Below, piece by piece: positions 5,404-42,046 of a DNA stretch of 64,000 bases (the stretch's first letter is position 1; the number at the start of each line of letters is the position of its first letter). The translations under genes were made by a program, and so were the position numbers. The DNA comes from Dictyostelium discoideum. Lineage: Eukaryota. A model generated the notes under the pieces. The model was not told the DNA's origin. It saw only the letters and a program-made list of their open reading frames with translations, and ran no database searches. The stretch spans positions 384,001 through 448,000 of the forward strand of contig CM000152.2 of the NCBI GenBank assembly GCA_000004695.1, read 5' to 3'.

Positions 5404-5622
5404 GAATGAAAGAGTTTGTAAACTATTATTATTTATTATTACATTTACATTATATAATGTATAGTTTACAAGTTGACCAAGTACTGATAGTGGTAGTGAT
5501 GGTTGTGATGATTTACAAAGAATGAAATCAATTTGGATAACATTTGATTTTTTACCATTTGCAATTAAATATAAATTTGAATTTTTAAAAGTTTGATTTG
5601 AAGGTGTAAATGATTAAGTTGT

Positions 5623-5922
5623 TTGTTTAATATGGATTCATTTTCATTTAAATTTAATAATAATTATAAAACAAATGAAGTTTATTTAAATGTTTGTATT
5701 GAACTATTACCAATTACTAATATTGTATTAAATTCAACAATTCAAACATTTCAACCAACAATAACAATAAATACATTACAACCTCAATTAAATAGTTCGG
5801 CAGAGCAAGAAAATAAAGAAAATAAAACCAACAGTGACAGTTTTAGTTCAAATGAAAACATATTAAATAAGAAACAAAAAAATGAAAAAATAACAAATGA
5901 CGGAGTAAAAAAAACAATATAA
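5623..5922 (+). CDS. Small hypothetical ORF (99 aa) sharing only its C-terminus/3' flank with copy A via the inverted repeat
   Basis: Track ORF MFNMDSFSFKFNNNYKTNEVYLNVCIELLPITNIVLNSTIQ...KKQKNEKITNDGVKKTI. The last ~14 codons and the downstream ~85 bp lie inside the right IR arm. No recognisable domain. Confidence 0.3.
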   Translation: MFNMDSFSFKFNNNYKTNEVYLNVCIELLPITNIVLNSTIQTFQPTITINTLQPQLNSSAEQENKENKTNSDSFSSNENILNKKQKNEKITNDGVKKTI

Positions 5923-6324
5923 CATTATTTTAATAATATTGTTAATAATAATTTCATTTTTTAACAAATAATATTTATTTAATATCACAATCAATTAAAC
6001 ATTTAAAATTTTATTAAAGTTTTATTTTTATTTTTATCTTTTTTTGATTTAATAAATGCTCATTTATCATTAGTTTTTTTTATTGTTTTTTTTAAAAATA
6101 GATTAGTTGGATGGGACAATGGAATGATTAAAATAAAAAGAAAATAAAAAAAAAAAAAAAAAAATAAAAAAACTTTGGAAAAAAAAAAAAAAAAAAAAAA
6201 AAAGCGAAAAAAAAGTGAAAAAAAAGCGAAAAAAATGTAAAATGAAAAATTTTTGTAAAACCCATAACATGTGCTCAAACAAAATAGCATTTTAGGGCAA
6301 GTTGAATTTATTTTTTAAAGTTAT

Positions 6325-11891: not shown

Positions 11892-11987
11892 TACTCAATT
11901 GAAAAAAAAAAAATACATTTAGAATAAAAAAAAAAATATAAAAAGTAACATTATATCATTATTTTATTATTTTATTGTTTAAATTAA

Positions 11988-13691
<1,704 letters not shown>

Positions 13692-14104
13692 AATATTTTT
13701 TATTTACATATTAAATAAAATAAAAAATATTAAAAAAAAAAAAAAATTAAAAAAAAAAAAAAATTTTTTAAAAAAAAAATTAAAAAAAAAAAAAATTACA
13801 ATCATCAAATTTAATAAAATAATTCTTATTTTTTTAGGTGAACTTAAAATTTTGAAAATCTAAAAATCTTAAAAAAAAAAATCATCACTTTCAAAAAAAA
13901 TCATTTTTTAAAAAAAAAAAAACAATTAATTGTGAAAATAAACCAGATTTAAAAATTTAGAATTTTAAAAATAAAAAAAAATAAAAGAATATAAAAAAAA
14001 AAAAAAATTTAAAATTTTTTTTGTAAAAATATTTAAAATTTCTTATATTAATTTTTTAAATTTAAAAACAATCATAAAAATTTTATATATATATTTAAAT
14101 AAGG

Positions 14105-16297
14105 ATGCATGACACATCATTTACTGTTCATATAAAAGATGAAATTCCAACTTACATCTTTTTTATTGATACTTCAGGGTCAGTTGGAAAAATTGATTTT
14201 GAAATAGTAGTATTATGTTTAAAAAAAATAATTACTGAATTACCAGATAAAGTTAAAATTGAAATTATTGCCTTATCTTCAGATGCTATAATCGTTTTTA
14301 AAAAGCGGCAAAAATAAAATATTTGAAGATATTGAAAACAGTAAGTTCAAAATATCTTGGAATTAATATAAACTATATCAATAAATTTAAAATTAATTTT
14401 TTAACCATTATTTTTTAGATTTACTTTTTGATAGTGGTGCTACTAATTTGGTTGAAGCTTTAAAACTTGGAGAGGTAACCATTACTAATTTTTGTATGAA
14501 TCAAAAAAATTATTTTGTTCTCTTGACTGATGGTGTACCAACTGATGATCCTGAACCAATTATTCAAAAATTAATTTTAAAGGTAATATCAATTATTTAT
14601 ATTAATAAAAAATAATTTTATATATCCAAATTTTTTTTTTTTTTTTTTTTTTTTTTATTTGGGAGTTGATTTTATTGTATTAGCAATTGGAATGGATTCA
14701 GATAAAAAAAAAATTCAAAAATTGTTCCCAGGCCAACATCTATTCATGTTTGATACATTTTCTGGTCTTAGTAAATGTGTGCACACTTTGATTCCATCTC
14801 ATATTTCTATACCATTGACTACCGAAATTTATCCAAAATTTGAAAAAATTCAAAAGTCAAATGAAGCTTTTTATATAATCATTAAATTATCGTCTATCTA
14901 TCCAAAAGATAAATTTCTTGAAAATGAAATAACTTTTATTATCAAGGATAATAAATACCATAGTGGCTATGAAATAAAAGTTGGTCAAGCCACAAGTGAA
15001 GATTGTCCAAGTGAAACAACTGCAAAACTAATTTTTAAATGTCCACAAGAAATGTTACCAACCCATATTGATTTTGAAATCAAAGTAAGGGGATCCACAT
15101 TCCATGGTTATTTCGATTTAAAATACTCTTGGTTCACTGGTGATTTTATTACTAGAAGTCCAATTAATATTTGGGTTGATGGTATGGTTGGTCATGGAAA
15201 ATCAATTTATTATTTAATATTTTTTCATTAAATATTGATTTTGAAGAATTTTTACTTGTAGGAAACAATGCTTTTCATGTCACCACGGAACTTAGATTCC
15301 AAAGTGTTGCTCATATTTTAGCAACCAAAATCGTTAACCAACATGGTCTCTCTCCAAGACTTGTTGACTTTTACAAGAATGTTATCAACTCATTAAAAAT
15401 TGTGTTTGTCGATAAGCCGGGTATGGCAAAGAACCAAGGTAACCTTAGCTATACTCATGCAACAAAGGGCCAATACTCTAACAAACAACACCTAAAAGAT
15501 CTTATCACTGTTGGCGAAGCAAAGTCTTCTCTAGAATGTCATGCTATTCTTTTCGTGATTTCAATTACATTGGTTGATGATGATGTAGATTTTGAATTCA
15601 TAAAAGGTAAAATTCGAGAATCACTTCAAGCAAAAATCAAACCAATTGTTGTGGTCACTCACTGCGACGACTATTCACCAGAAGAAGCTGAAGCAATGAA
15701 AAAGAAACTTGAAGAAGAACTAAAGGTTGATAAAAAGAATTTCTTTTATTTAACTCCATATATTCAAGGTGAGAAACAACGTGATCCAACAAAAGATAGA
15801 ATTGTTTTTCAAATACTCAAATCTATTGTTGAAATTGCCAATAACACTCAAAATCAAAAAATATTAGAATCTTTGGCCAACGATATTAATAACAATAATA
15901 TAGATGAAATTTGTAACTCCTTTGTAAATACTTCTATTAGTTCAACTACCACTACCACTACCACTACTACTAATTCAAATACCTCAAGTGCTAATTCGAC
16001 TCCAAATGGAAATTCCTCTTCACCTTTATTATCCCCAAATGTTGTTGGTTCAGAATCTACTCTTTGGACAATTTGTGTAAAGAATGATTTAACAGATGCA
16101 AAAGTAAATGAAGCCAGATTTAGAGTTTATCCATCAATGACCTTAAAGATTTTGTTTCAAGAGTGTCACAAAAGTTTAAACTTTCTGTTGGTCTTTTTAG
16201 TTTTACAGATGAAAATGGTTATGATCTTTTATTCCCAGATGAATCCATTTTACTCAATGTTTTATCTGATAATATTACCCTTTCAATCTCTGATTAA
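14105..16297 (+). CDS. Multi-exon gene: vWA domain + AIG1/GIMAP-like GTPase domain + C-terminal PB1/ubiquitin-like domain; the gene model is uncertain and carries apparent frameshifts
   Basis: vWA part: the exon starting at 14105 has FFIDTSGSVG (a MIDAS DxSxS motif). The exon 14419..14582 has LLFDSGATNLVEALK...VLLTDGVPTDD and ends at a GTAATA donor. The track ORF 14659..15231 reads GVDFIVLAIGMDSDKKK... and ends with a GTPase P-loop, VDGMVGHGKS. GTPase part: 15262 onward has VFVDKPGMA (G3 DxxG), HAILFVISI, and VVVTHCDDY (G4), as in AIG1/GIMAP. C-terminal part: the last exon (~16125..16297, frame-shifted relative to the upstream part, entered via the acceptor ATTTAG) encodes INDLKDFVSRVSQKFKLSVGLFSFTDENGYDLLFPDESILLNVLSDNITLSISD*, which is PB1-like. 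Problems: there is a T5-run frame change inside exon 1 (AIIVFKK / SGKNKIFEDIEN). There is a T6-run frame change between the P-loop and the rest of the GTPase domain. The acceptor of the third exon is non-canonical. Confidence 0.5.
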
Positions 16298-16483
16298 AAT
16301 AAATTATAAATATAATAAAATAATTTTTTATGTATATATAATAATAATAACAATAATAATAATAATAATAATAAAAATAATAAAAATAAAAGCAATTAAC
16401 ATTAATTGACGCAATAAAATTTTAACTAATATTTATTAATTAAATTGAAATGTTTTTTTTTTTTTTTTTTTTTAATATTTAAC

Positions 16484-18497
16484 TTATTTAGTTGGTTGGA
16501 TATTTTTAACCATAGTAGCTAAATATTTGAAACGAGCAACACAATCTTTTTTAGATTTAGTACCGAGACGAGCTGCGATTTGATCCCAACGATCTTCAGC
16601 ATTTTTATCGACTTTTTGTAAAGCTTCTTCCAAGAGTTTTTGTTCTTCTGGTGTCCATTCAACAGAGGCAGTGGTAGTGGTAGTTTCTTTTTTAGCGGCT
16701 GGTTTGGCGGTGTCGACAGTTGATGGAGCGGTGGCGGTAGTGGTTGATTCAGTGCCATTTGAAGTGGTACCTACTGGATATTGACCGAGGTCAACTTTTG
16801 AACTGAGTTCAGATTTAATTTCCATATGACCAACTTTGGCTTTTAATTTATCATAATCGGAACCTGATGGAGCAGCTTCTGGTTTTGAGAAAGATTGTTG
16901 TTGAGTTGGTTGTGAGGTTTTAGCTTTGGCGATAACGTCTTTCAAAGAACGAGTTGGAATACAAGATGCAACGGATTCCCAACGTTTGGTAACACCTGGT
17001 GGGAACTTTTGGATGGCTTTAGCCAAGAGATGGAGTTCATCTTCAGTCCATGGTCTCTCTGGTTTAGCTTCTTTCTTATTGTTGAGTAATGCTTTTCTTT
17101 GCTCTTGATAGAGTCTGTCGGCCTCTCTTTGTTTCTCTTGAATTTCGTTCAATTGGACGAGGAAAACTGCTTTCTTATCGGTGACATTATTTTTGGTTTC
17201 CATTTCTTTGGTGAGCTCGCCTAATTGGAGGTTGTCCAAGGTGGCGATGACCAATTCAACATCTTCAATCTTTTGTGGTGGTTGGAATGATTTACAAATG
17301 TCACGGAATTGGATCTTACCCTTCTTTAATAATGCGGTTTGTTCAGCTTTGACACGTTTCTTTTCTTCGGCTTCGTCTTTCTTTCTCTTTTCTTCGGCTT
17401 CGACTCTTTCTTTTTCAGCTTTTTCAGCGGCTTCTTTTTCTTCTTGTGCCTTTCTCTTGGCTTCGTTTTTGGCATTCTTGTGTGCATTCTTTTTGTCGTC
17501 TTCTTCTTTTAATTTCTTTTGAATACGTGGATCTTTTTTGTAGGCGAGATTGGCGAGATCTTGAATACGTGCAGCTTCGATCTTTCTTTGTTTGACACGT
17601 TTCTTTTCATTCTCTCTCTCCATCCAACGTTTCTCTTCACGAGAGTCTGCATTATCTAAATCATGATCATCTTCAAATGTGAAATCTCTCCATGACTTGA
17701 ATGACCACCAAAAGTTATAGAATTTAACAACCTTATCATATGGAGTATCCATATCACCAAGTTTTGGTACTGGTTGAACGTTTGACCAACGAGAGTTACT
17801 ATCAAATACTGGTTCATAGATTTCGAAAAAGTCACCTTCTTCATCGGCTGTTGGAATATCATCATCAAATGGATCGGTTGAATCGTATGCTCTTCTCTTT
17901 TTAATATCACTTAAAATATTATTTGATTTAACTAATGCTTTAAATGCTTCATCATTACCACCTAAATCTTGATTTTTATCTGGATGAACAACTAAAATCA
18001 TTTTTTTATCTATTATTTAATAAATATTAATAAAAAAAAAAAAAAAATAAAAAAAAAAATCATATATTAATAAATTATTTTATTTTTTATTTTTTTATTT
18101 TTATTTTTAAAAACTTACATGCTAATTTAATATCATTATCGGTAGCTCTCCAACGTAAATGATCTAAACCCATGATTTTGTAATGATTAACATCTTTACC
18201 AGTTTTAGTCCACTCTTTATGATTATTTTTATAGTTTTCTTTTAATTCGTCAATGTTGTCATCATCATTTGAATCTTGAGATTTCTTGTCATCTGAAGTG
18301 GCACTAACCAAGCCAATGATTTCGACATCACCCTTTTTGACTTTACTCCAAACTAATTCAAACTCTTCACCAATTGGTTCGACTGAACGATTACATTCAC
18401 TCCAACCTAAAGATCCGTTGGTGTAATGAATTTCTCTTGAATTTTCATTTGACCATTCTTCTGCTGTTGGTGATGATAAAGATACAACAAGTGACAT
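16484..18497 (-). CDS. dnajc2: DnaJ homolog subfamily C member 2 (zuotin/MPP11-like): J domain + zuotin homology domain + two SANT domains, 2 exons: 18119..18497 and 16484..18009
   Basis: Exon 1 ends NHYKIMGLDHLRWRATDNDIKLA followed by a GTAAGT donor at 18118-18113, in phase 1. A 109-nt AT-rich intron ends at the TAG acceptor at 18012-18010. Exon 2 continues Y-KKMILVVHPDKNQ, completing the J-domain HPD motif. The Lys/Glu-rich charged region (zuotin homology) follows, then two SANT/Myb repeats (WTEDELHLLAKAIQKFPPGVTKRWESVASCI and WTPEEQKLLEEALQKVDKNAEDRWDQIAARLGTKSKKDCVARFKYL). Confidence 0.9.
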
Positions 18498-18795
18498 TAT
18501 TAAATATTATTTGTTTGTTTTAATGTGTCTTTATGTTTTAGAGAAAAAAAAAAAAAAAGAATAAAAAAAAAAAATATTTAAATATTTTTTTTTTAAAATT
18601 TTTTTTTTTTTTTTTTTAACCCGCACGCTCGCTCAGTTTCGACTTTTTGGAAAATTATTTTTAAAAAAAATTAAATAAAACTACAAAAAACCGAAAAAAA
18701 CGTTTTTTTAATTTTAGTTTTTTTTTTTTTTTTTTTTAGTTTTTTTTTTCAAATCTTAATTTCGGCTGATTAACTAAACATGGTAAATTAGTTTG

Positions 18796-18846
<51 letters not shown>

Positions 18847-20063
18847 CTTTCCTTTTTCCAAAATTACTTAAAATTAAAAAAATAAAAATAAAAAAAAAAA
18901 ATATAAAATTGTTTAAAATTTAAGGAAATAAATTAAAAATAAAAAACAAATAAAAAAATAAAAATAAAAATAAAAAAATAAATGTTATATCTTAAAAAAA
19001 AGTTTATCATTTAATATTTCCTTTTCTTTTTTTTTTTATTTTATTTTTTATAAATAATATTAATTTAACTTTAATATCTCTAAAAACAAAAAAACCATTT
19101 TATATATTTATGATCATCACAACAATTATATTTATTAAATCAAGTTTAAATTAATATTAATAAAAAAAAAATTTATTAAAATTAAAATAAATTATTTAAT
19201 ATTTTTTTTTTACAATCAAAAATAAAAAAAATAAAATATTTTATTTATTTAATTTTGACTGGATTTAAATTTTTATTGTTTTTTAAATATCTTTTTTTTT
19301 TTATTTTATTTTTTATTTTATTTTTTTTTTTAATTTATTTTTTTTATTACTTTTTTTATTATATTTCTTTTTTTAATTTTGGAAATAATAAAATGGAGAC
19401 TTTATTTTAAATGCATTTGAATTTCAAATAACAATGATATCTTGATGATAGTTTATTAAATAGGAATCATTTTGCTAATTCGATAACAAAGAAAAAGGAA
19501 ATTTAGTGGTTGTGATTTTCCAAAAATAGAAAATCCAAATTTTTTTTTTTATTTATTAATTTTTTTTTATTTTTTTTATTTTTTTTTTTTCATTTATTAA
19601 TTTTTTTTTTTTTATTTTTTTTTATTTTTTTAATGTTTTCATTGAAAAAAAAGTGTAAACTCCACGGTGAAAATATCGAAAAATTAAAACCCAAATAAAA
19701 ATCCCCAACATAGTTTCAAAAATATCCAAATTCAAATAAAATGCAATGCAAAAAAAAAAAAAAAAAAAAAAAAAGAAAAGAAAAAAAAAAAAAAATTATA
19801 AAAATAAAAAAAAAAAATTAAAAAAAAAAAAATAAATCAAAAAAAAAAATTAAAAAAAAAAAAAAAAAAAAAAAATTTTCAAAAAAAAAATTTAAAAAAA
19901 AAAAAAAAAAAAAACTTTGTTTATCACCAGATAAAAATATATCACATTGGCGTAATTCGCATACCAAAAAAAGATTTTTTTTTTTTTTTTTTAAATTTTT
20001 TATTATTTATAATTTTTATAATATAGATATATTATATTTCACAATGTGGGTATTTTTTATTTT

Positions 20064-20097
<34 letters not shown>

Positions 20098-20330
20098 TAA
20101 ATAATAAAAATATTGTTATTATTATTATTATTTATTATTTTTATTTTTACCTTTTTTATTGTTTCTATTTTTATTTTTTTTTTTTATTTTTTATTTTTTT
20201 ATTTTTTAATTTTTTTGTTTTTTTTTATTTATTTGTTATGGATCCTCATTATACTCAGATATAATAATATAAAATACATAACTTTACCGTTTGACAATAA
20301 TCGCCATCGATTTCATATCTATTTTTAAAA

Positions 20331-21755: not shown

Positions 21756-24648
<2,893 letters not shown>

Positions 24649-24830: not shown

Positions 24831-24889
<59 letters not shown>

Positions 24890-26742
24890 TTGGATTTTGT
24901 TCATAAACCTTTACACCATTTGGAAAATTATTACGAGGAAAATTATAATTTTGAAGATAAATTTTTTTAATTGTTTTTGGTATATTAATTGGTCTTTGAG
25001 TATTAAATAAACAAAGCCATTTAACAGTTGGTGGAATATAAATATCTTGATTAAAACCATCACGTAAAAATAAATTTTTAACACTACTACCAATCATTGG
25101 TGGTGTTGATGATATATTTGATTTAATATTGAATAAATGAAGGTCTGTTATATTTTTTGACAATACATTTTCCAACGGTAAATTAAAACCATCATGAAGG
25201 AATAATTCTAATAAATTAATTGGTGTTTTTATTGATAGAACTTTAATATCGTAAAGATGTAATTCTCTTAATGAATTTGGAATTTGACAACCTTCAATTG
25301 AAAATCCATCATGTAAATGTAAAATTGAAATTTTACTTGATTGTTGTTGTAGTTTTTGATTCATTGGTTTAACAAATGATGATAATGATGATGATGGTGA
25401 TGAATATGGGTTATTAATATTATATATATGTAAAGTTGATACTGTTTTTGGTAATTGATTATAATCTAATTTAATTGAACAACCATCATGAAGATGTAAT
25501 TCAGTCAGAGAAGCACCATAGGTTGTAATTGGTCCAAAAACAACTATATTACCAATATGAAGAGTTTTAATTGATATTGGGACATGGATTTCATGTCTAA
25601 ATCCATCCAATAATATTATTGTATCAACTTCTGTATTTATTAACCATTCATTTAACTTTGGCCATTCACCATTAAAATCACTTCCTAATGAAATTGATTT
25701 GGTTTTATTTTTAATAATTTCAACTCCATTTACATATTTAAAACTATTTTCACTAAATTCAAATATTTTATTATTTTTATTATATGGTGTTAATACCTGT
25801 TGTTGTGGTGGATGTTGATATTGTTGTTGTTGTTGATATTGCTGTTGTTGATAATCTAATAGTTGTTGTTGATATTTAATAAAACGACCATATAAATATT
25901 TTGGAGGAGAAATTGGGAATGAGAGTTTTGATTCTAATTGATTAATTTGAGTCTCTAAGAAATTTTGATATTGTATACTATTTGTTTTTTCAGATTCTAA
26001 TTGGGATATTTTAGATTGAAGTGATAATAAATGTGGTTTTAATGATATGTAGCTACATGTTGATTCATGATTATCTTTATCTTTTAAATGACCATTCCAA
26101 GGACATGAAACATTATTGGCACTGCAATTAGAACTTGATAATATACATTCATTATCTTTATGATGTTTTAGTTCTATTTTAGTATATAATTTTAGATTTG
26201 TTGGTGATGTGATTAAATCATTATTTAATGTTAATTTAGAAGTTGTTGAAATTATTTGACATTCACATTCATTAGTTTTACATTCAAATTCGGAATGATT
26301 TTTAATAAAATATAAACGGGTCATATATTTAATTTCATTTTCTGGATAATTATCTTTACATTGAATACAATAAACCAATAATTCATCTAATTTGTTTGTA
26401 ATGATTTTGGGTGGATTTGATAATTTATTTTTGTTTATAATTTGTTTACAAGATGGACAATTATTTTTACCAATATTAAAATTATTAAGTAAACATTGAT
26501 TACAAAACTTTTATTTTTTTATTTTTATTTTTATTTTACCTTGTTAGAATATTTTATTTTTATTTTTATTTTTTTTTTTTTATTATGTGTATATATATTA
26601 TATAAAATTTTACCATTGACCCACAATTTTGTTCGACAACTGGTTCGAAGAGAGGTAAAAGACAAATTGAACATTCTAATTCCTTATCAATTTCAATTGG
26701 TTGATTATAAATAAATGGAAGAATATTATTTGATTCACCCAT
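24831..26742 (-). CDS. TRAF-type RING/zinc-finger + FNIP-repeat protein (Dictyostelium-specific FNIP repeat family), 2 exons: 26614..26742 and 24831..26507
   Basis: Exon 1 (ATG at 26742) reads MGESNNILPFIYNQPIEIDKELECSICLLPLFEPVVEQNCGSM and ends at a GTAAAA donor at 26613. A 106-nt AT-rich intron ends at the AAAAG acceptor at 26509-26508. Exon 2 continues FCNQCLLNNFNIGKNNCPSCKQII (a RING-like C-x2-C...C-x2-C pattern). Then come a TRAF-like Cys/His region, a coiled coil and a poly-Q tract. The end of the protein carries multiple FNIP repeats (LHLHDGFSIEGCQIPNSLRELHLYDIK..., LFLHDGFNLPLEN..., LFLRDGFNQDIYIPPTVKWL). Confidence 0.8.
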
Positions 26743-28649: not shown

Positions 28650-30044
28650 ATGAAAGTTTTATTATTATTGGTTTGTTTAGTTTTTGCTTATGTTAATGCA
28701 AGTTATGATGCATGTTACAATGTAGTTTGTCCAAGTAACTATCAATGTAGAGCTGAAGGTGATCAAGCTTATTGTGTACCAGAACATCATGAGTATGGTT
28801 GTGATAGACATTCATGTGGTCGTGGTTATGAATGTGTTGAGCGTTGGGATTCCTTTTGTTGTAAACCAATTCATCACCGTCCACACCCACACCCACGTCC
28901 ACCACATCCACACCCACGTCCAACCAATTGTGATTACACTTCTTGCCCAAGAGAATTTGATTGTCATGTAATCAATAGAAATGTCACTGCTTGTTTACCA
29001 GATAACCATGTTTGCAGAGATTTCCAATGTCCAGTAGGTACTCATTGTTTCAATGGTGAAAGAGGTCCACACTGTGTAAGTGATACTCATTATCCAAATT
29101 TATGTCGTGTAACCAAATGTTCATATGATTTCACTTGTAAAATGGTTAGAGGTAATCCAACTTGTTTAAGAAATCATGATGGTATTTCAACCCATTCTCC
29201 AACCCATACCCCAACCCATTCTCCAACCACCTCTCCAACTCATTGTCCATCTTGTACCGAATTAGCTCCATTTTGTCATTCTGCAGGTTTGGTTTGTAGA
29301 ACTATTCTTAATCCATCTTGTGTTTCTGCAGTAAGAGGTATCATCAATACTAGATCTTGTTGTACCTATATTGCAGTATGTGCTTCAAATTCAACTTCAA
29401 CAACTGGCGCTACTACTGGTGCTACTACACCCACAAGCACAACTGGTGCTGCAACTACCGCTGCTGCTACTACCACTACAGCCACAAGTACAACTGGTGC
29501 TGCAACCACTGCCCCAGCAACTACTACAACCACAAGTACAACTGGTGCTGCAACTACTGCCCCAGCAACTACAACCACAAGTACAACTGGTGCTGCAACC
29601 ACTGCCCCAGCAACTACTACAACCACAGCCACAACTATAGTAGGTGTTACCACTGCTAATTCAGTAGGTGGTTTAACTACTACTAGAGCAACAACAGTTG
29701 CTGGTGTCACTACTGCTAATTCAGTAGGTGGTTTAACTACTGCCGGCATTACAACAGTTGCTGGTGCCACTACTGGTAATTCAGTAGGTGGTTTAACTAC
29801 TGCTAGAGCAACAACAGTTGCTGATGTCACTACTGCTAATTCAGTAGGTGGTTTAACTACTGCCGGCGTTACAACAGTTGCTGGTGCCACTACTGGTAAT
29901 TCAGTAGGTGGTTTAACTACTGCTAGAGCAACAACAGTTGCTGATGTCACTACTGCTAATTCAGTAGGTGGTTTAACTACTTCTAGAGCAACAACAATTG
30001 CTGGTGCCACTACTGCCAATTCAATAGGTGGTTTGACAAATTAA
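28650..30044 (+). CDS. Secreted Cys-rich N-domain / Thr-Ala-Gly-rich tandem-repeat (mucin-like) protein, paralog A
   Basis: Signal peptide MKVLLLLVCLVFAYVNA. Two Cys-rich modules separated by a HHRPHPHPRPPHPHPRP linker. The second module (NCDYTSCPREFDCHVINRNVTACLPDN...FNGERGPHC...YPNLCRVTKC...MVRGNPTCL) is shared with the 32548 gene. Then tandem TTGAATTAPATTTT and ANSVGGLTTARATTVA(G/D)VTT repeats. Confidence 0.7.
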   Translation: MKVLLLLVCLVFAYVNASYDACYNVVCPSNYQCRAEGDQAYCVPEHHEYGCDRHSCGRGYECVERWDSFCCKPIHHRPHPHPRPPHPHPRPTNCDYTSCPREFDCHVINRNVTACLPDNHVCRDFQCPVGTHCFNGERGPHCVSDTHYPNLCRVTKCSYDFTCKMVRGNPTCLRNHDGISTHSPTHTPTHSPTTSPTHCPSCTELAPFCHSAGLVCRTILNPSCVSAVRGIINTRSCCTYIAVCASNSTSTTGATTGATTPTSTTGAATTAAATTTTATSTTGAATTAPATTTTTSTTGAATTAPATTTTSTTGAATTAPATTTTTATTIVGVTTANSVGGLTTTRATTVAGVTTANSVGGLTTAGITTVAGATTGNSVGGLTTARATTVADVTTANSVGGLTTAGVTTVAGATTGNSVGGLTTARATTVADVTTANSVGGLTTSRATTIAGATTANSIGGLTN

Positions 30045-30384
30045 AATTTTAATCAAAACAGAAACACCTAAAACAAGAAATGGAAAACGTAAATAAAATT
30101 TTAATTTATTTAAATTTTTTTATTTTAGATTTTATTTTTTATTTCTAAATTTTATTTTTTTATTTTTCTATTATATTTTTTATTTTTTTTTATTTATTTT
30201 ATTTTATTTTTACTTTTTTTATTTTATTTTTACTTTTTATTTATTTTATTTTTATTTTTAATTTTATTTTTAAATTTATTTATTTTGTTTTTATTTTTAA
30301 ATTTTATTTTTATTTTTATTTATTTTATTTTATTTTATTTTTACTTTTTTTTATTTTTATAAAGATTTAGAACAATTTGATGAT

Positions 30385-31288
30385 ATGACTGGGATCTCTA
30401 ATATTAATTTTTTTGATTTATTAAAAAAGGTTGAATTTTTAATAAAAAAAAAAAAAGATAATAGAGGTCGAAAACAAATTTATAAAACAAAAGAAAAATT
30501 ATTTGTCACCTTGTTTCACATGAGGCATTATACAAGATTAATTGTTTTAAATAAGTTGTTTGGTATTAGTGCATCTACATTCACTAGGATATATGATGAG
30601 ATATTGGATATACTTTTTCAATTATCATTAGGATAATTTTGAAGAGGTTTTTAAAAATAGATTTAATGAAGAAACAAGCTGTGTAGATTATGAATCTCCA
30701 GATGTTGGTCTGGCAACAATTACAATGGTAGTTGATGGATCAGAGCAGCAAATTACGATTCCATTAGATGAAGATGTCAAAAACATTTTATACAGTGGGA
30801 AAAAGGGTAAATCTACTCTAACCTTATTGGTTTATTGTTGTCCAAAATCTGGGAAAATATTACACGTAGGTTCAACATGTGGCGGAAGTAACAATGACAT
30901 CAATTTGTTTGAGAGAGATAAAGACTTTATATCAAAATAGGAAAAAGAAAAAGAATTTATATTAGGTGATAGAGGATTTGTTGGTGTTGGAAGGTTAGTA
31001 TTAACTATTCCAAAAGGTAAAAGAGATTATGAACAGAAACAAACAGATATAGATCAAAAATCAATAAGAATAATTATTGAAAATGTGTTTGCTAAAATAA
31101 AAAGATTCTTTATTACAAGTATGCCACTAAGATATAAATTTTCAGTAGGATCAATTGATATGGATAGTGTTCAAGAAAAACACCACAAAACATGGTGTGT
31201 TGTAGGCTATATTATAAATTTGTTTAAACCAATAAGAGATCTAAAAAAAAATCTTAAAAAAATGACAATAAATAATAAAATAATTTAA
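30385..31288 (+). pseudogene. Decayed Harbinger/PIF-type (DDE_Tnp_4) transposase gene remnant
   Basis: Three consecutive ORF pieces. The first, ...RGRKQIYKTKEKLFVTLFHMRHYTRLIVLNKLFGISASTFTRIYDEILDIL, is the HTH N-domain. The second, DNFEEVFKNRFNEETSCVDYESPDVGLATITMVVDGSEQQITIP...YSGKKGKSTLTLLVYCCPKSGKILHVGSTCGGSNNDINLF, holds the DDE core (DG[ST]...YSGKK...PGS.HD). The third, ILGDRGFVGVGRLVLTIPKGKRDYEQKQTDIDQKSIRIIIENVFAKIKRFFI, holds the LGDxGY...E motif. One +1 frame change near 30636 and one in-frame TAG at 30938-30940 interrupt it. No terminal inverted repeats were identified by eye. Confidence 0.6.
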
Positions 31289-31451
31289 TAATGAATTTAT
31301 TATAATCAATGATTTTTTAATTGTTCACTATTTTTTTTTTCCATATGAAATTAATATAAAAAAAAAAGAAAAAAAAACAAAAAAAAAAAATTTTTTTGAT
31401 TTTTTTTGATTTTTTTTTTTGGTGGGATCCATGATAAATTGTTTGGATAAA

Positions 31452-31486
<35 letters not shown>

Positions 31487-31730
31487 ATTTGTTTAAATTT
31501 CTATTTTATTCCTTTTGCTAATATCTATGGCCAAAAAGTTGGGAAATAATTTAATTTGATTTTAATTTTTTTTTTTTTTAAGATAAACTTGAAAATGTAT
31601 AAAGATTTTTGATCATTCACATAATTTGATATTAAAAAAAATAACCAATGTTTCTATTTACCATTTTAAAAGAATATAAAATCGAATTCTTTTTTTTTTT
31701 TTAAACAAAGTTTTTTTTTTATTTCTTTTA

Positions 31731-31787
<57 letters not shown>

Positions 31788-32547
31788 TTTAATAATAAAA
31801 TTATACATATACAAGGAACCAGATATTATTATATTTTTTTGTTTTTTTAATTATTTCACATAAAAAAGGGGTTAAAATAAAAATAAAGGGAGAGTTTTTT
31901 TTTTTTTTGTAAGAAATCTTGAGATATTATGATCATTTTATTTTAATTTTTCAATTAAATTTTATAAGAATGTTTGAGAGGATAAAAATTAAATTAATTT
32001 TATTAAAATAACCCACAATTTTATATTATAAAAAAAGACAATCTTTTATGGATATTATTTCATTTTTTATTTTTTTTTTGGATTGTGGTATGAAATTGTA
32101 AATTTAAAAAAAAAAAACTCAAAAACATAGTGTTATTAAACATTTATAATAAAAAGCTTATATTAAAGATGAGAATAATTAACCAATTAGTAATTGTTAT
32201 TGGTATGTTTTTATTTTTTTTGATTTCTTTTTTTAACAAATCATACGAAAACTTTGTAAAATAACTTATACTTTGTTGATTAAATATACAAATGGAAAGA
32301 AAGTAAATATAATTTTCTGAAAATAAATGAAGTATTTTTTACAAAAAATTAAATTAATTAAAAAAAAAAAAAATTAAATAAAAATTAAAAAATCGATATT
32401 GGTATAAATAAAAAAGAATTTAATTTGGTAAAACTATTTTAATGTTTATTATATAAAATTTATTTATTTTTTTATTTTATTTTATAGACATATAAATTGG
32501 ATTTTTCTTAAATAAAAAAAAAAAATAAAATAAACCATTAAAAAAAA

Positions 32548-35500
32548 ATGAAAGTTTTTTTATTAATATTATTGGTTTGTTTTATTTCTATTAATGTTGA
32601 TGCATTTCATAATTATAGAGCCAATTGTGATTACACCTCTTGTCCTAGAGAATTTAGTTGCCATGTAATCAATAGAAATATCACTGCTTGTTTACCAGAT
32701 AATGATATTTGTAGAAATTTTCCATGTCCACAGGGTAGTCATTGTTTCAATGGTGAAAGAGGTCCTGGTTGTTTTGATGATATCCATTATCCAAATTTAT
32801 GCTATGTAACCCATTGTTCATTGGATTATGATTGTAGAATGGTTAGAGGTGATCCAATATGTTTAAGATTTCAAAATGTTAATCCAACTAATACTCCAAC
32901 CCCCACCCCAGTTCATTGTACCACTTGTGCTGAACTAGCTTCTACTTGTCACTCTGATGGTTTAGTTTGTAGAACTATTGTTAATCCCAAGTGCCGTGGT
33001 AATTCAATAAAAGCTCTCGCCAAAACTAAAGCATGTTGTCCATATATTGCATTTTGTGATTCAAATTCAACCTCACACACAACTGGGGTACAAACAACAA
33101 CAGGAAGAAGTACGACTGGTGTACAATCAACAACTGGTAGGAGTACAACTGGTAGAAGTACAACTGGTAGAGGTACAACTGGTACAAGTACAACTGGTAC
33201 AAGTACAACTGGTACAAGCACAACTGGTAGAAGCACAACTGGTACAAGTACAACTGGTACAAGTACAACTGGTAGAAGTACAACTGGTACAAGTACAACT
33301 GGTACAAGTACAACTGGTACAAGTACAACTGGTACAAGCACAACTGGTACAAGTACAACTGGTACAAGCACAACTGGTACAAGTACAACTGGTACAAGTA
33401 CAACTGGTACAAGTACAACTGGTACAAGCACAACTGGTACAAGCACAACTGGTACAAGCACAACTGGTACAAGTACAACTGGTAGAAGCACAACTGGTAG
33501 AAGTACAACTGGTAGAAGTACAACTGGTAGAAGTACAACTGGTAGAAGTACAACTGGTAGAAGTACAACTGGTAGAAGTACAACTGGTAGAAGTACAACT
33601 GGTTCCGCTTCAACCACAGGAAGAGGTACAACTGGTTCTGCTTCAACCACAGGAAGAGGTACAACTGGTTCTGCTTCAACCACAGGAAGAGGTACAACTG
33701 GTGCTGCTTCAACCACAGGAAGAAGTACAACTGGTAGAGGTACAACTGGTAGAAGTACAACTGGTAGAAGTACAACTGGTTCCGCTTCAACCACAGGAAG
33801 AGGTACAACTGGTTCCGCTTCAACCACAGGAAGAAGTACAACTGGTTCCGCTTCAACCACTGGAAGAAGTACAACTGGTTCTGCTTCAACCACAGGAAGA
33901 GGTACAACTGGTTCTGCTTCAACTACAGGAAGAGGTACAACTGGTTCTGCTTCAACCACAGGAAGAGGTACAACTGGTTCTGCTTCAACCACAGGAAGAG
34001 GTACAACTGGTTCTGCTTCAACCACAGGAAGAAGTACAACTGGTGCTGCTTCAACCACAGGAAGAAGTACAACTGGTAGAGGCACAACTGGGGTACAATC
34101 AACAACTGGTGCTGCTTCAACCATAGGAAGAAGTACAACTGGTTCTGCTTCAACCACAGGAAGAGGTACAACTGGTGCTGCTTCAACCACAGGAAGAAGT
34201 ACAACTGGTGCTGCTTCAACCACAGGAAGAAGTACAACTGGTAGAGGTACAACTGGTGCTACTACTGCTAATTCAATAGGTGGTTTGACAACTGCTGGCG
34301 TCACAACAGTTGCTGGAGTAACTACTGCTACTGCCTCAACCGTTGCTGGAGTAACTACTGCCTCAACCGTTGCTGGTGTAACTACTAATTCAATAGGTGG
34401 TGTAACCACAGGAAGAGGTACAACTGGTGCTGCTTCAACTACAGGAAGAAGTACAACTGGTAGAGGTACAACTGGTGCTACTACTGCTAATTCAATAGGT
34501 GGTTTAACAACTGCTGGCGTCACAACAGTTGCTGGAGTAACTACTGCTACTGCCTCAACCGTTGCTGGAGTAACTACTGGTAGAGGTACAACTGGTTCTG
34601 CTTCAACCACAGGAAGAGGTACAACTGGTGCTGCCTCAACCGTTGCAGGAGTAACTACTGCTAATTCAATAGGTGGTATAACCACTGCTACTGCCTCAAC
34701 TGTTGCTGGAGTAACTACTGCTAATTCAATAGGTGGTTTGACTACTGCTGGCGTCACAACCGTTGCTGGAGTAACTACTGCCTCAACCGTTGCTGGAGTA
34801 ACTACTGCCTCAACCGTTGCTGGTGTAACTACTAATTCAATAGGTGGTGTAACCACAGGAAGAGGTACAACTGGTGCTACTACTGCTAATTCAATAGGTG
34901 GTGTAACCACAGGTAGAGGTACAACTGGTGCTACTACTGCTAATTCAATAGGTGGTTTAACAACTGCTGGCGTCACAACAGTTGCTGGAGTAACTACTGC
35001 TACTGCCTCAACCGTTGCTGGAGTAACTACTGCTACTGCCTCAACAGTTGCTGGAGTAACTACTGCTAATTCAATAGGTGGTTTGACAACTGCTGGCGTC
35101 ACAACAGTTGCTGGTGTCACTACTGTCAATTCAATAGGTGGTGCAACCACTGCCAATTCAATAGATGGTGCAACCACTGCCACTGCCTCAACCGTTGCAG
35201 GAGTAACTACTGCTAATTCAATAGGTGGTATAACCACTGCTACTGCCTCAACTGTTGCTGGAGTAACTACTGCTAATTCAATAGGTGGTGTAACCACAGG
35301 AAGAGGTACAACTGGTGCTGCTTCAACTACAGGAAGAAGTACAACTGGTAGAGGTACAACTGGTGCTACTACTGCTAATTCAATAGGTGGTTTAACAACT
35401 GCTGGCGTCACAACAGTTGCTGGAGTAACTACTGCTACTGCCTCAACCGTTGCTGGAGTAACTACTGCTAATTCAATAGGTGGTTTGACAACTGCTGGCG

Positions 35501-38500
35501 TCACAACAGTTGCTGGTGTCACTACTGTCAATTCAATAGGTGGTGCAACCACTGCCAATTCAATAGATGGTGCAACCACTGCCACTGCCTCAACCGTTGC
35601 AGGAGTAACTACTGCTAATTCAATAGGTGGTATAACCACTGCTACTGCCTCAACTGTTGCTGGAGTAACTACTGTCAATTCAATAGGTGTAACAACTGCT
35701 AGTTCAATAGGTGGTTTAACAACTGCTGGCGTCACAACCGTTGCTGGTGCCACTACTGCCAATTCAATAGGTGGTTTAACTACTGCTGGCATTACAACAG
35801 TTGCTGGTGCCACTACTGTCAATTCAATAGGTGGTTTGACAACTGCTGGCATCACAACAGTTGCTGGTGTCACTACTGCCAATTCAATAGATGGTGCAAC
35901 CACTGCCACTGCCTCTGCCTCAACCGTTGCAGGAGTAACTACTGCTAATTCAATAGGTGGTATAACCACTGCTACTGCCTCATCTGTTGCTGGAGTAACT
36001 ACTGCTTCAGTTGGAGGTTTGACAACTGCAGTTGCCTCTACAGTAGCTGGAGTAACTACTGCTGCTTCAATAGGTGGCGTAACCACTGCTACTGCCTCAA
36101 CCGTTGCTGGAGTAACTACTGCCTCAACCGTTGCTGGTGTAACTACTAATTCAATAGGTGGTGTAACCACTGCTACTGCCTCAACTGTTGCAGGTGTAAC
36201 TACTGCTGCTTCAATAGGTGGTTTAACTACTGCTGGTTTAACAACAGTTGCTGGATTTACCACTGCTGCCTCTGTTGGAGGTTTAACTACTGCTGGTGCT
36301 ACAACAGTTGCTGGTTCAACAACTTCCCCAGCATCAGTAGGTGACTTAACTACTGCTGGAGCAACAACAGTTGCTGGGGTTACCACTGCTGCTTCTGTTG
36401 GAGGTTTAACTACTGCTGGTGCTACAACAGTTGGAGGTTTAACTAATGCTAATTCAATAGGTGGTGTAACCACTGCTACTGCCTCAACGGTTGCTGGTGT
36501 AACTACTAATTCAATAGGTGGTGTAACCACTGCTACTGCCTCAACTGTTGCAGGTGTAACTACTGCTGCTTCAATAGGTGGTTTAACTACTGCTGGTTTA
36601 ACAACAGTTGCTGGAGTAACTACTGCTTCAGTTGGAGGTTTGACAACTGCAACTGCCTCTACAGTAGCTGGAGTAACTACTGCTGCTTCAATAGGAGGTT
36701 TAACTACTGCCGGCATTACAACAGTTGCTGGTTCAACAACAACAGTTGCTGGAGTCACCACTGCTGCTTCTGTTGGAGGTTTAACTACTGCTGGTGCTAC
36801 AACAGTTGCTGGAGTTACTACTGCTGCTTCTATTGGAGGTTTAACTACTGCTGGTGCTACAACAGTTGCCGGAGTTACTACTGCTGCTTCTATTGGAGGT
36901 TTAACTACTGCCAGTTTAACAACAGTTGCTGGTTCAACAACTTCCTCTTCATCAGTTGGTGGTTTAACTACTGCTGGAGCAACAACAGTTGCTGGAGTAA
37001 CTACTGCTGCTTCTGTTGGTGGTTTAACTACTGCTGGTATTACAACAGTTGCTGGAGTTACTACTGCTGCTTCTGTTGGAGGTTTAACTACTGCCGGTTT
37101 AACAACAGTTGCTGGTTCAACAACTTCCTCTTCATCAGTTGGTGGTTTAACTACTGCTGGAGCAACAACAGTTGCTGGAGTTACTACTGCTGGAGCAACA
37201 ACAGTTGCTGGAGTTACTACTGCTGCTTCTGTTGGAGGTTTAACTACTGCCGGTATTACAACAGTTTCTGGAGTAACTACTGCCAATTCAATAGGTGGCG
37301 CGAACACCGCTACCGCCGGTATAACTACTGCTGGAGCAACAACAGTTGCTGGAGTTACTACTGCTTCTGTTGGTGGTTTAACTACTGCCGGTATTACAAC
37401 AGTTGCTGGAGTAACTACTGCTGCTTCTGTTGGTGGTTTAACTACTGGTATTACAACAGTTGCTGGAGTTACTACTGCTGCTTCTGTTGGAGGTTTAACT
37501 ACTGCCGGTTTAACAACAGTTGCTGGTTCGACAACTTCATCTTCATCAATTGGAAGTTTGACTACGGCTGGTTTAACAACAGTTGCTGGAGTTACTACCG
37601 CTGCTTCTGTTGGAGGTTTGACAACTGCCGGTGTAACAACAGTTGCTGGCTCAACAACTTCCCCAGCATCAGTAGGTGGTTTAACTACTGCTACTGCCTC
37701 AACGGTCGCTGGAGTTACTACTGCCGCTTCAATAGGAGGTTTAACTACAGCTGGTATAACAACAATTGCTGGTTCAACAACTTCTGCTTCATCAGTGGGT
37801 GGTTTAACTACTGCTGGTTTAACAACAGTTGCTGGAGTTACTACTTCTGCTTCTGTTGGAGGTTTTACAACTGCCGGTATAACAACAGTTGCTGGTTCAA
37901 CAACTTCCCGAGCATCAGTAGGTGGTTTAACTACTGCTGGTGCTACAACAGTTGCTGGAGTTACTACTGCTGCTTCTGTAGGTGGTTTAACTACTTCTTC
38001 TTTGACAACAGTAGCTGGTGTCACTACTGGTACTGCTTCTGTTGGTGGTTTAACGACTGCTGGTGTAACTACCACCGCTGCTTCTGTTGGTGGTTTAACA
38101 ACTGCAGGTATTTCAACAATATCTGGTGTTACTACTGCCACAGCCTCAACGGTGGCAGGTATGACTACTGCCGCTGCTACATCAGGTGGTGTTTCAACTG
38201 CTACCGTATCATCAGGTGCCACAACTACTCAGGCATCAACACTATTTGGAATAACAACTGCTGCTTCTGTAGGCGCTTTAACAACAGCAGGTATGACAAC
38301 AGTCGCTGGTTTTACTACTGCTGCTTTTGTAGGTGGTTTAACAACTGCTGGTTTAACAACTGCTGGTGTAACTACTACCGCTGCTTCTGTTGGTGGTTTA
38401 ACAACTGCTGGTGTAACAACTACTGCTGCTTCTGTTGGTGGTTTAACAACTGCTGGTGTGACTACTACCGCTGCTTCTGTTGGTGGCTTAACAACTGCTG

Positions 38501-38805
38501 GTGTAACTACTACCGCTACTTCATCAGGTAGTGTTTCAACTGCTACCGTATCATCAGGTGCCACAACTACTCATGCTTCAACACTATTTGGAATAACAAC
38601 TGCTGCTTCAATAGGTGCTTTAACAACTGCAGGTATGACAACAGTAGCTGGTGTTACTACTGCTGCTTCTGTAGGTGGTTTAACAACTGCTGGTCTATCA
38701 ACAGTATCTGGTGTAACTACTTCTGCTTCTGTGGGTTCTTTAACAACTGCTGGTTCAACAACTCGTTCTGGTTCAACAACTCGTTCTGGTATAATAGGTG
38801 GTTAA
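32548..38805 (+). CDS. Giant secreted Cys-rich N-domain / Thr-Gly-rich tandem-repeat (mucin-like) protein, paralog B (2085 aa)
   Basis: Signal peptide MKVFLLILLVCFISINVDA. The N-domain NCDYTSCPREFSCHVINRNITACLPDNDICRNFPCPQGSHCFNGERGPGC...YPNLCYVTHC...MVRGDPICL...CTTCAELASTCHSDGLVCRTIVNPKC...ACCPYIAFCDSNSTS is ~60% identical to paralog A. About 1,900 aa of nested tandem repeats follow: TTG(T/R)S (15-nt units), GSASTTGRGTT (33-nt units) and ANSIGGLTTAGVTTVAGVTT (60-nt units). It is a single uninterrupted ORF. Confidence 0.75.
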   Translation: MKVFLLILLVCFISINVDAFHNYRANCDYTSCPREFSCHVINRNITACLPDNDICRNFPCPQGSHCFNGERGPGCFDDIHYPNLCYVTHCSLDYDCRMVRGDPICLRFQNVNPTNTPTPTPVHCTTCAELASTCHSDGLVCRTIVNPKCRGNSIKALAKTKACCPYIAFCDSNSTSHTTGVQTTTGRSTTGVQSTTGRSTTGRSTTGRGTTGTSTTGTSTTGTSTTGRSTTGTSTTGTSTTGRSTTGTSTTGTSTTGTSTTGTSTTGTSTTGTSTTGTSTTGTSTTGTSTTGTSTTGTSTTGTSTTGTSTTGRSTTGRSTTGRSTTGRSTTGRSTTGRSTTGRSTTGRSTTGSASTTGRGTTGSASTTGRGTTGSASTTGRGTTGAASTTGRSTTGRGTTGRSTTGRSTTGSASTTGRGTTGSASTTGRSTTGSASTTGRSTTGSASTTGRGTTGSASTTGRGTTGSASTTGRGTTGSASTTGRGTTGSASTTGRSTTGAASTTGRSTTGRGTTGVQSTTGAASTIGRSTTGSASTTGRGTTGAASTTGRSTTGAASTTGRSTTGRGTTGATTANSIGGLTTAGVTTVAGVTTATASTVAGVTTASTVAGVTTNSIGGVTTGRGTTGAASTTGRSTTGRGTTGATTANSIGGLTTAGVTTVAGVTTATASTVAGVTTGRGTTGSASTTGRGTTGAASTVAGVTTANSIGGITTATASTVAGVTTANSIGGLTTAGVTTVAGVTTASTVAGVTTASTVAGVTTNSIGGVTTGRGTTGATTANSIGGVTTGRGTTGATTANSIGGLTTAGVTTVAGVTTATASTVAGVTTATASTVAGVTTANSIGGLTTAGVTTVAGVTTVNSIGGATTANSIDGATTATASTVAGVTTANSIGGITTATASTVAGVTTANSIGGVTTGRGTTGAASTTGRSTTGRGTTGATTANSIGGLTTAGVTTVAGVTTATASTVAGVTTANSIGGLTTAGVTTVAGVTTVNSIGGATTANSIDGATTATASTVAGVTTANSIGGITTATASTVAGVTTVNSIGVTTASSIGGLTTAGVTTVAGATTANSIGGLTTAGITTVAGATTVNSIGGLTTAGITTVAGVTTANSIDGATTATASASTVAGVTTANSIGGITTATASSVAGVTTASVGGLTTAVASTVAGVTTAASIGGVTTATASTVAGVTTASTVAGVTTNSIGGVTTATASTVAGVTTAASIGGLTTAGLTTVAGFTTAASVGGLTTAGATTVAGSTTSPASVGDLTTAGATTVAGVTTAASVGGLTTAGATTVGGLTNANSIGGVTTATASTVAGVTTNSIGGVTTATASTVAGVTTAASIGGLTTAGLTTVAGVTTASVGGLTTATASTVAGVTTAASIGGLTTAGITTVAGSTTTVAGVTTAASVGGLTTAGATTVAGVTTAASIGGLTTAGATTVAGVTTAASIGGLTTASLTTVAGSTTSSSSVGGLTTAGATTVAGVTTAASVGGLTTAGITTVAGVTTAASVGGLTTAGLTTVAGSTTSSSSVGGLTTAGATTVAGVTTAGATTVAGVTTAASVGGLTTAGITTVSGVTTANSIGGANTATAGITTAGATTVAGVTTASVGGLTTAGITTVAGVTTAASVGGLTTGITTVAGVTTAASVGGLTTAGLTTVAGSTTSSSSIGSLTTAGLTTVAGVTTAASVGGLTTAGVTTVAGSTTSPASVGGLTTATASTVAGVTTAASIGGLTTAGITTIAGSTTSASSVGGLTTAGLTTVAGVTTSASVGGFTTAGITTVAGSTTSRASVGGLTTAGATTVAGVTTAASVGGLTTSSLTTVAGVTTGTASVGGLTTAGVTTTAASVGGLTTAGISTISGVTTATASTVAGMTTAAATSGGVSTATVSSGATTTQASTLFGITTAASVGALTTAGMTTVAGFTTAAFVGGLTTAGLTTAGVTTTAASVGGLTTAGVTTTAASVGGLTTAGVTTTAASVGGLTTAGVTTTATSSGSVSTATVSSGATTTHASTLFGITTAASIGALTTAGMTTVAGVTTAASVGGLTTAGLSTVSGVTTSASVGSLTTAGSTTRSGSTTRSGIIGG
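33090..38790. repeat. ~5.7 kb coding tandem-repeat array (15-, 33- and 60-nt unit families, near-identical copies) inside the 32548..38805 gene
   Basis: Dozens of consecutive copies of units such as actggtacaagtaca or ggtacaagtacaactggtagaagtacaact. The long antisense track ORFs over this region (32949..38222, 33026..33922, 33047..34126, 33923..34252, 38229..38564) are mirror artefacts of the repeat. Confidence 0.9.

Positions 38806-39736: not shown

Positions 39737-42046
<2,310 letters not shown>

Follow-up and report, generated by a model that had tools for sequence, protein, structure and literature searches.

Between two paralogous repeat genes in a 64,000-nucleotide stretch of Dictyostelium discoideum DNA (contig CM000152.2, positions 384,001 to 448,000; the window, to which positions refer unless a locus is named), three open reading frame (ORF) fragments together resemble a transposase. 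The question is what they are the remains of: a mobile element, a gene that the host had taken over, or something that helped to duplicate its neighbours. Alignments with complete relatives suggest that the interval 30362-31434 is very probably a dead, 5'-truncated copy of a cut-and-paste transposon from a dictyostelid-specific DDE_Tnp_4 lineage of the PIF/Harbinger-ISL2EU-Spy (PHIS) superfamily. More tentatively, and as a proposal that we would rate somewhat short of even, the relic may be the laboratory-strain remnant of a still-mobile, uncatalogued PHIS group specific to social amoebae. In such a group, a single protein with a novel zinc-binding N-terminal DNA-binding region fused to a helix-turn-helix (HTH) and DDE module would replace the Myb partner of Harbinger elements, TGA would be the target, and live copies would exist in wild D. 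discoideum and Cavenderia fasciculata, but not in strain AX4.

The truncated copy in the window

The sequence-only reading had proposed that the three ORF fragments rebuild an HTH and DDE transposase, and their positions and Pfam matches bear this out. The pieces lie on the plus strand at 30385-30636 (frame 0) and at 30725-30940 and 31085-31288 (frame 1); frame 1 is open from 30632 to 31288 with the exception of a single TAG. When joined, they give a 308-amino acid (aa) protein that matches DDE_Tnp_4 (PF13359), the profile that the earlier reading had named, at E=9.5e-19 (68 bits, cut-off 24.8). The same protein has the HTH DNA-binding motif N-terminal to the DDE domain, matching HTH_Tnp_4 (PF13613) at E=1.5e-10 (40.9 bits, cut-off 27). 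Each of the three fragments also matches Pfam by itself, and therefore the domain assignment is not due to chance. Membership of the PHIS superfamily has been defined by an E value below 1e-4 to the family profile (PMC4482050), and the catalytic region of the relic is alignable at a value below that threshold. All three catalytic codons are kept, for Asp at 30734-30736 (VVDGSEQ), Asp at 30968-30970 (LGDRGF) and Glu at 31079-31081 (IIIENVF). Both Asp columns and the DGSEQ motif are invariant in family alignments, and the Glu is conserved within the IIIEN motif.

Comparison with intact relatives, including two copies in the wild D. discoideum isolate ACTFIW (loci L001 and L007), confirms the two lesions expected from the sequence, a +1 frame change and an in-frame TAG (Table 1). 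An intron in place of the frameshift was ruled out, as the interval in which the frame can switch is about 2 nt long and the reading frame of intact relatives continues here without a break. The first ATG of the relic, at 30385, corresponds to an internal Met in full-length relatives. Thus, the description of the transposase as near-full-length holds for the HTH and DDE module and fails for the protein, which in family members extends about 390 aa further at the N-terminus.

The relic (about 30362-31431) corresponds to the 3' ~45% of a 2.3-2.4 kb single-gene element bounded by terminal inverted repeats (TIRs). Its alignment with L001 is confined to 30292-31423 (77.6% nucleotide identity) and the flanks are unrelated; homology to L001 and L007 becomes convincing from about 30362, the start of exon 2, right after the family intron. 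Similarly, a tblastn search of the window with a full-length relative (P0003) begins at residue 391 of the query and finds no trace of exon 1, which encodes a Cys-rich region of ~390 aa, and a TIR pattern search of the window finds no 5' TIR. The earlier judgement that the copy is dead is thus upheld by the frameshift, the stop, and the missing exon 1 and 5' TIR. Because exon 1, an intact ORF and the second TIR are all missing, the window copy would be able neither to make a transposase nor to be mobilised, and in all likelihood it is inert spacer DNA. No further family copies or miniature inverted-repeat transposable elements (MITEs) were found in the window by tblastn and TIR pattern searches.

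At the other end the 3' TIR is present and ends in ...TTTTGGTGGGATCCA. It has CACCAAAA in common with the D. discoideum TIR. It also contains GGATCC and shares ATCCC with the C. fasciculata TIR, a motif that is not in the TIR of young D. discoideum copies, which suggests that the sublineage of the window copy retained an older terminal sequence.

The AT-rich degenerate minisatellite reported just upstream was located by Tandem Repeats Finder (TRF). It abuts the 5' breakpoint of the relic and lies outside the element proper. This zone has only weak T-rich similarity to the intron of L001 and L007, and the minisatellite may have expanded from the T-rich intron of the family.

The window differs from chromosome CM142509.1 of a second assembly (GCA_054883475.1) by indels only, with 0 mismatches, and the relic has the same sequence in both; among the proteins of that assembly is one identical to AX4 DDB_G0274631. 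The annotation of the second assembly carries one gene model of 2244 aa (window ~30080-38789; 11431-20140 of the extracted locus, L003), which begins 36 nt past the upstream gene, runs across the minisatellite and the relic, and ends in the 2085-aa downstream ORF (32548-38805). We suspect that this model is probably an over-extended automatic annotation. The relic thus appears to have confused automated annotation, and no functional consequence was shown for the window copy itself.

Table 1. Features of the window copy, and genes around three related insertions (L001 and L007, isolate ACTFIW; L005, C. fasciculata)
Feature	Coordinates	Strand	Basis
T-rich degenerate minisatellite	30098-30360		TRF periods 5/6/40/131, 69-83% matches
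Exon 2 start incl. HTH_Tnp_4 (about 30496-30606), frame 0	30362-30630	+	PF13613 E=1.4e-11 on fragment; L001/L007 homology begins here
1-nt insertion (extra G), +1 frame change	30631	+	L001 ...TCATTA GAA AAT TTT vs window ...TCATTA G GAT AAT TTT
DDE_Tnp_4 first half, frame 1	30632-30937	+	PF13359 E=5.4e-08 on fragment
Premature in-frame TAG	30938-30940	+	L001/L007 TTA (Leu) at same codon
DDE second half and C-terminus, native stop TAA 31286-31288	30941-31288	+	PF13359 E=1.1e-06 on fragment
3' non-coding subterminal region, conserved block TTTTTTTTTTCCATATGAAATTAATAT at 31331-31357	31289-31412	+	Alignment with L001 and L007 3' ends
3' TIR TTTTTTTTGGTGGGATCCA, reverse complement TGGATCCCACCAAAAAAAA	31413-31431	+	Aligns to L001/L007 3' TIR ...TTTTGGTGAAAGTTA
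TGA directly after 3' TIR, presumed 3' copy of 3-bp target-site duplication	31432-31434	+	TGA at both ends of L001/L007, single at empty allele L009
FNIP-repeat genes around insertions	L001 7267-8354 and 11343-13634; L007 3031-5145 and 8308-10426; L005 3381-5664 and 8292-10325		

Complete relatives and their mobility

The family was found by an exhaustive profile search (652 matches, with names taken from cluster look-ups). A word-indexed protein search was insensitive: it recovered only two relatives with the relic as query, low-complexity words swamped the query built from the family alignment, and for the neighbouring TBC gene it gave no Dictyostelium orthologues. The best matches in the profile search are proteins of 580-690 aa in which the HTH and DDE module is C-terminal to a region of ~390 aa. 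A full-length family protein has 650-690 aa, with a Cys-rich region at the N-terminus followed by HTH_Tnp_4 and the DDE domain. Members are encoded in wild D. discoideum isolates (ACTFIW_005204, _007631, _008267/8 and _010501; ACTFIR_002183 and _011029; ACTFIT_012387), in D. cf. discoideum (ACTFIY_000809, _003881, _008396 and _008491) and in C. fasciculata (DFA_00656 = DFA_10682, DFA_06849 and DFA_00807/8). Others are Heterostelium album PPL_01171 and partial proteins from Polysphondylium violaceum (CYY_010409) and Synstelium. The AX4 member, DDB_G0267216, is a fragment of 165 aa that UniRef names 'DDE Tnp4 domain-containing'.

Two Cys clusters are conserved in the N-terminal region, C-x2-C...H...C at the extreme N-terminus and an invariant KC-x2-C-x3-C...(Y/F)C(S/T)-x2-C. 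The region has no Pfam match even at E<=5, and FCS/MYM/TRASH and THAP zinc fingers were rejected as candidates on this basis. An AlphaFold model is confident in the DDE half and of low confidence in the N-terminal region; Foldseek against the PDB returned generic RNase-H-like transposases and integrases only.

Intact elements measure 2.37-2.40 kb, have TIRs of 15-34 bp (TAAYTTTCACCAAAA in D. discoideum, (TGA)TAAYCATCCCGAAAAAAAATGTTAAAAATGT in C. fasciculata) and contain one two-exon gene, with no room for a second ORF. Both TIRs are present in the two ACTFIW copies and in two C. fasciculata copies (L005 and L004), and the window has the 3' TIR only. Over exactly 2300 bp the C. fasciculata copies have 99.9% identity, and beyond that stretch the two loci are unrelated. 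The whole element at L005 (5846-8213) is 2368 bp long with 34-bp TIRs (TGATAAYCATCCCGAAAAAAAATGTTAAAAATGT), and at L004 (5846-12705) the matching 3' TIR lies 4.5 kb further on, with other sequence nested inside. In isolate ACTFIW, L001 and L007 share 98.4% identity across about 2.3 kb and have the termini TGATAATTTTCACCAAAA... and ...TTTTGGTGAAAGTTATGA; the element at L001 (8480-10883 including the flanking TGAs) is 2.40 kb long and has one gene only.

Evidence for movement comes from L007, where a copy is inserted between two tandem FNIP-repeat genes. The same gene pair is adjacent and without the element in isolate ACTFIR (L009), where 193 bp separate the genes, and in the window's own genome (L008), where the gap is 167 bp. 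The empty site at L009 reads ...TTTTTT TGA TCACTTTTTTATTTT..., and the occupied site at L007 reads ...TTTTTT TGA, the element (TAATTTTCACC...GGTGAAAGTTA), and then TGA TCACTTTTTTATTTT... There is one TGA at L009 and there are two at L007; therefore, the insertion is polymorphic within the species and the duplication is the 3-bp TGA. The D. discoideum TIRs proper are then TAATTTTCACCAAAA and TAACTTTCACCAAAA. L001 is likewise flanked by TGA on both sides, a truncated copy at L011 has TGA at its 5' junction, and the 3' flank of the window copy is TGA. Thus, the TIRs and the 3-bp target-site duplication (TSD) that the sequence-only reading expected of other genome copies were both recovered, the TIRs at L001, L007, L005 and L004, and the TSD from the L007/L009 pair. 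From this polymorphism and the near-identity of copies, it appears that relatives of the window copy moved recently in wild D. discoideum.

We suspect that transposition in this family would follow a simple scheme. The transposase would bind the TIRs through its HTH and probably through the N-terminal zinc-binding modules, and the DDE site would cut the element out. The element would then reinsert at TGA, where a 3-nt staggered cut would duplicate the trinucleotide.

The junctions vary among loci. At both L005 and L004 the element is preceded by TGA and followed by TCA, giving a perfect TGATAA...TTATCA inverted repeat, whereas D. discoideum copies have TGA on both sides. At L005 the inverted symmetry runs 6 nt further into the flanks (AATTTC...GAAATT). 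It is possible that the three nucleotides flanking the element behave differently in C. fasciculata. At the empty sites, the AX4-like spacer of L008 (8082-8248) lacks, relative to L009 (8117-8309), a segment of ~23 nt, GATCACTTTTTTATTTTTTTTTT, that holds the TGA target of the ACTFIR and ACTFIW alleles; this could be either an indel polymorphism or an old footprint.

L007 carries a 571-bp AT-rich insert (5429-5999) between the 5' TIR and the gene that is absent from L001 and has long inverted ends (GATCTATCAGTGAATAATTGA... and ...TCAATTATTCACTGATAGGTCC). It looks like a separate MITE-like element, and related sequence occurs at L007 12822-13156 and L009 13975-14116. The ~4.5 kb nested near the 3' end of the L004 copy (8146-~12640) contains a minus-strand gene for a 935-aa protein without a Pfam match, and 5 kb upstream of that copy (524-1300) is a fragment of a DDE_Tnp_1_7 (piggyBac-type) gene. 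In D. cf. discoideum, ACTFIY_000809 has a second family copy 2 kb away (L006 1585-4121, minus strand), which points in the opposite direction and is divided between two gene models; between these is a 208-nt inverted duplication (arms 2374-2581 and 2707-2914, 99% complementary). Generic inverted-repeat scans of the AT-rich D. cf. discoideum loci L006 and L002 gave noise only and defined no termini. Two further young D. discoideum copies, at L010 and L011, are truncated by the retrotransposon clusters in which they lie, where RVT_1/rve genes flank them on either side. Thus, in wild isolates the family also accumulates in regions rich in transposable elements.

Age of the copy and competing explanations

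In a neighbour-joining tree, the relic is the lone sister to the young D. discoideum clade, within a clade of dictyostelids only. Between the relic and L001 the proportion of synonymous differences (pS) is 0.58 and that of nonsynonymous differences (pN) is 0.078, with a ratio of nonsynonymous to synonymous substitution (dN/dS) of 0.073; therefore, nearly all of the divergence accrued under purifying selection. Neutral substitutions were simulated on the repaired window frame, and the probability of at most one stop was 0.84 at 1% divergence, 0.58 at 2%, 0.15 at 5% and 0.03 at 8%, which bounds neutral drift to roughly <5-8%. Given this scarcity of stops and the presence of just two lesions, neutral decay of the window copy was brief. 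In a relative-rate test, changes were mildly but not significantly more numerous on the branch of the window copy (11 vs 4, chi-square 3.3). These values make it very likely that the window copy belongs to a separate old sublineage and stopped functioning recently. Most simply, this may be read as a copy that was inserted fairly recently, came from a sublineage no longer seen, and was truncated afterwards.

Several points weigh against the reading of the window copy as the remains of a mobile element with a TGA target. The TGA target duplication rests on a single empty-site comparison, and the TGA...TCA of both C. fasciculata copies leaves it unsettled across the family whether these nucleotides are TSD or TIR. 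Transposition is itself deduced from the presence of an insertion in one genome and its absence from others, and from the near-identity of copies. No profile or fold supports a function for the N-terminal region. Finally, the very low dN/dS and an HTH and DDE frame that starts with ATG would also fit a gene that the host retained and lost recently.

This last scenario deserves the most attention, even if we consider it unlikely. Once exon 1 and the 5' TIR had been lost, the host would have kept the frame of about 300 aa that begins at ATG 30385 as a gene, in the manner of HARBI1, and the frameshift and stop would have inactivated it only recently. The dN/dS of 0.07 and pS of 0.58 relative to the nearest lineage agree with such a history, as do the intact catalytic residues and the finding of two lesions only in 900 nt, which leaves little neutral time. 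An HTH and DDE protein of 300 aa is also the standard size of the short transposases of the superfamily (e.g., P0009, 296 aa). However, a low dN/dS is also expected if both copies descend from active transposon lineages and the window copy was inserted recently, and the 3' subterminal region, the 3' TIR and the flanking TGA of the element are still there. In a word-indexed search of a collection that includes the annotated proteins of AX4 and those of several isolates of D. discoideum and D. cf. discoideum, nothing was more than 84% identical to the relic and no intact orthologue turned up; L002 and AX4 DDB_G0267216, the other old copies, are fragments as well. Retention of the window copy by the host until recently could be added to the proposal of a still-mobile group, as a more speculative extension of it.

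Returning to the transposon reading, the label Harbinger/PIF-type given to the relic from its sequence is appropriate at the superfamily level and does not hold below it. PHIS groups are defined by their TSD (Han et al. 2015; PMC4482050). PIF/Harbinger elements have a TWA duplication, a transposase and a Myb/SANT ORF, an average length of about 4.1 kb and TIRs that start with A/G (PMC4482050). The dictyostelid family resembles them (including the source of HARBI1) in its DDE_Tnp_4 domain with a D-D-E triad, upstream HTH, short TIRs, 3-bp duplication and cut-and-paste logic. It differs in the TGA duplication, the single gene, the Cys-rich N-terminal extension of ~390 aa, the length of about 2.4 kb and TIRs that start with T. 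A companion Myb/SANT-like ORF, which had been anticipated, was not found: there is none in the complete elements at L005 (2368 bp) or L001 (2.40 kb), which hold one gene only, and no ORF of 45 aa or more lies at 31435-32547 of the window.

Could the window copy nevertheless derive from a canonical two-ORF PIF/Harbinger element that lost its Myb/SANT ORF and TWA duplication? The shared Pfam catalytic domain and HTH, the 3-bp length of the duplication, and a window 3' flank that reads TAA after TGA would be compatible with this. We regard it as very improbable, since complete and near-identical elements in two species are 2.37-2.40 kb long with one gene each, TGA is the duplicated trinucleotide at the empty/occupied pair, and the family TIRs start with T rather than with A/G (PMC4482050). 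The DNA-binding role of the partner is plausibly held by the fused N-terminal region.

Other described groups match the dictyostelid elements in part. NuwaII elements have a C|TNA|G duplication and a transposase with Myb/SANT, and are reported from plants, fungi and animals only (PMC4482050). The dictyostelid TGA fits TNA, and C...G flanks are found only at C. fasciculata L005, but the D. discoideum flanks are T...A and T...T and there is no second ORF. NuwaI has a CWG duplication with a transposase and Myb/SANT, and Pangu an ANT duplication with two ORFs, the second without a known motif (PMC4482050). Spy elements have one ORF and insert into AAATTT without a TSD (PMC4482050). They resemble the dictyostelid family in having a transposase and no partner ORF, whereas the dictyostelid elements have one TGA at the empty site and two at L007, with flanks other than AAA|TTT. 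ISL2EU, restricted to animals, has an AT duplication, a THAP-bearing transposase and a YqaJ ORF (PMC4482050). An N-terminal module of zinc-finger type fused ahead of HTH and DDE is common to both, but the dictyostelid family has no THAP or YqaJ match in Pfam and its TSD is not AT. The catalogued Tdd-4/5, DDT-A/B/S and Thug elements share the D. discoideum host, low copy number and TIRs. They are described as lacking resemblance to known transposases (PMC5633606), unlike this clear DDE_Tnp_4 family, and it is by these descriptions that the two are set apart. Thus, the family is apparently an undescribed variant of the PHIS superfamily and, to the extent that the published Dictyostelium transposon catalogue was searched, is absent from it.

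The position of the relic raised the further idea that the element brought about, or took part in, the tandem duplication of the flanking Cys/Thr-rich repeat genes. These genes (28650-30044 and 32548-38805) are indeed paralogues, as had been noticed, with 60% aa identity over the Cys-rich N-domain and Thr-rich repeats in common. The relic lies exactly between them, and its relatives at L001, L007 and L005 also lie between FNIP-repeat genes. A role in duplication is nevertheless unsupported, and we give it hardly any credence. The window has a single copy in 64 kb and none at the outer edges of the duplicated genes, and paralogues with only 60% identity in their N-domains point to a duplication older than the short neutral phase of the copy. 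At L007, the FNIP genes are adjacent in strains without the element, and so insertion followed duplication there.

Finally, a bacterial IS5-family insertion sequence, present by contamination or recent horizontal transfer, can be practically dismissed: a weak NCBIfam match to an IS5 family transposase (NF033581, 28.6 bits) and one close non-dictyostelid relative labelled as a Fervidobacterium metagenome-assembled genome protein on a 3-kb contig point that way, but the score is far under the 140-bit cut-off, a second chromosome-scale assembly carries the identical locus, the full-length relatives contain a spliceosomal intron and are dictyostelid in composition, and the sequences from several dictyostelid genera group in a clade of their own.

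Place in the dictyostelid mobilome and surrounding genes

The window copy is ordinary in itself, one dead member of a family, and its interest lies in what it points to. According to a 2017 review, Tdd, DDT and Thug are the only D. discoideum DNA transposon families, none of them with a recognisable transposase, and the transposon catalogue of the species dates from 2001 (PMC5633606). PHIS elements were surveyed in 836 genomes, eight of them dictyostelid, and for these eight no PHIS family is listed (PMC4482050). The family to which the relic points is recognisably DDE_Tnp_4 and occurs in several dictyostelid genera; it would give the mobilome of a model organism one more class-II family, and would widen the range of PHIS elements by an architecture based on a single protein and by TGA as a target. 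If the elements of C. fasciculata or of the wild isolates are active, then, at 2.4 kb, they would be small candidate tools for endogenous insertional mutagenesis.

In two species, the family has inserted independently between FNIP-repeat genes three times, and at L007 and L005 these genes form tandem same-strand pairs. Conserved synteny of this arrangement between D. discoideum and C. fasciculata was ruled out, as the similarity is generic at about 25%. The FNIP-flanked insertions may reflect tolerance of, or preference for, fast-evolving tandem arrays. In the window, a RING/TRAF and FNIP gene (24831-26742, minus strand) is found 4 kb upstream of the relic.

Two further genes in the window encode proteins with long poly-Asn tracts and have one intron each. 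The first (21756-24648) encodes an ankyrin and TBC/Rab-GAP protein of 933 aa and has an intron of 91 nt; the second (39737-42046) encodes an Integrator-11/CPSF73-like metallo-beta-lactamase protein of 744 aa and has an intron of 75 nt.

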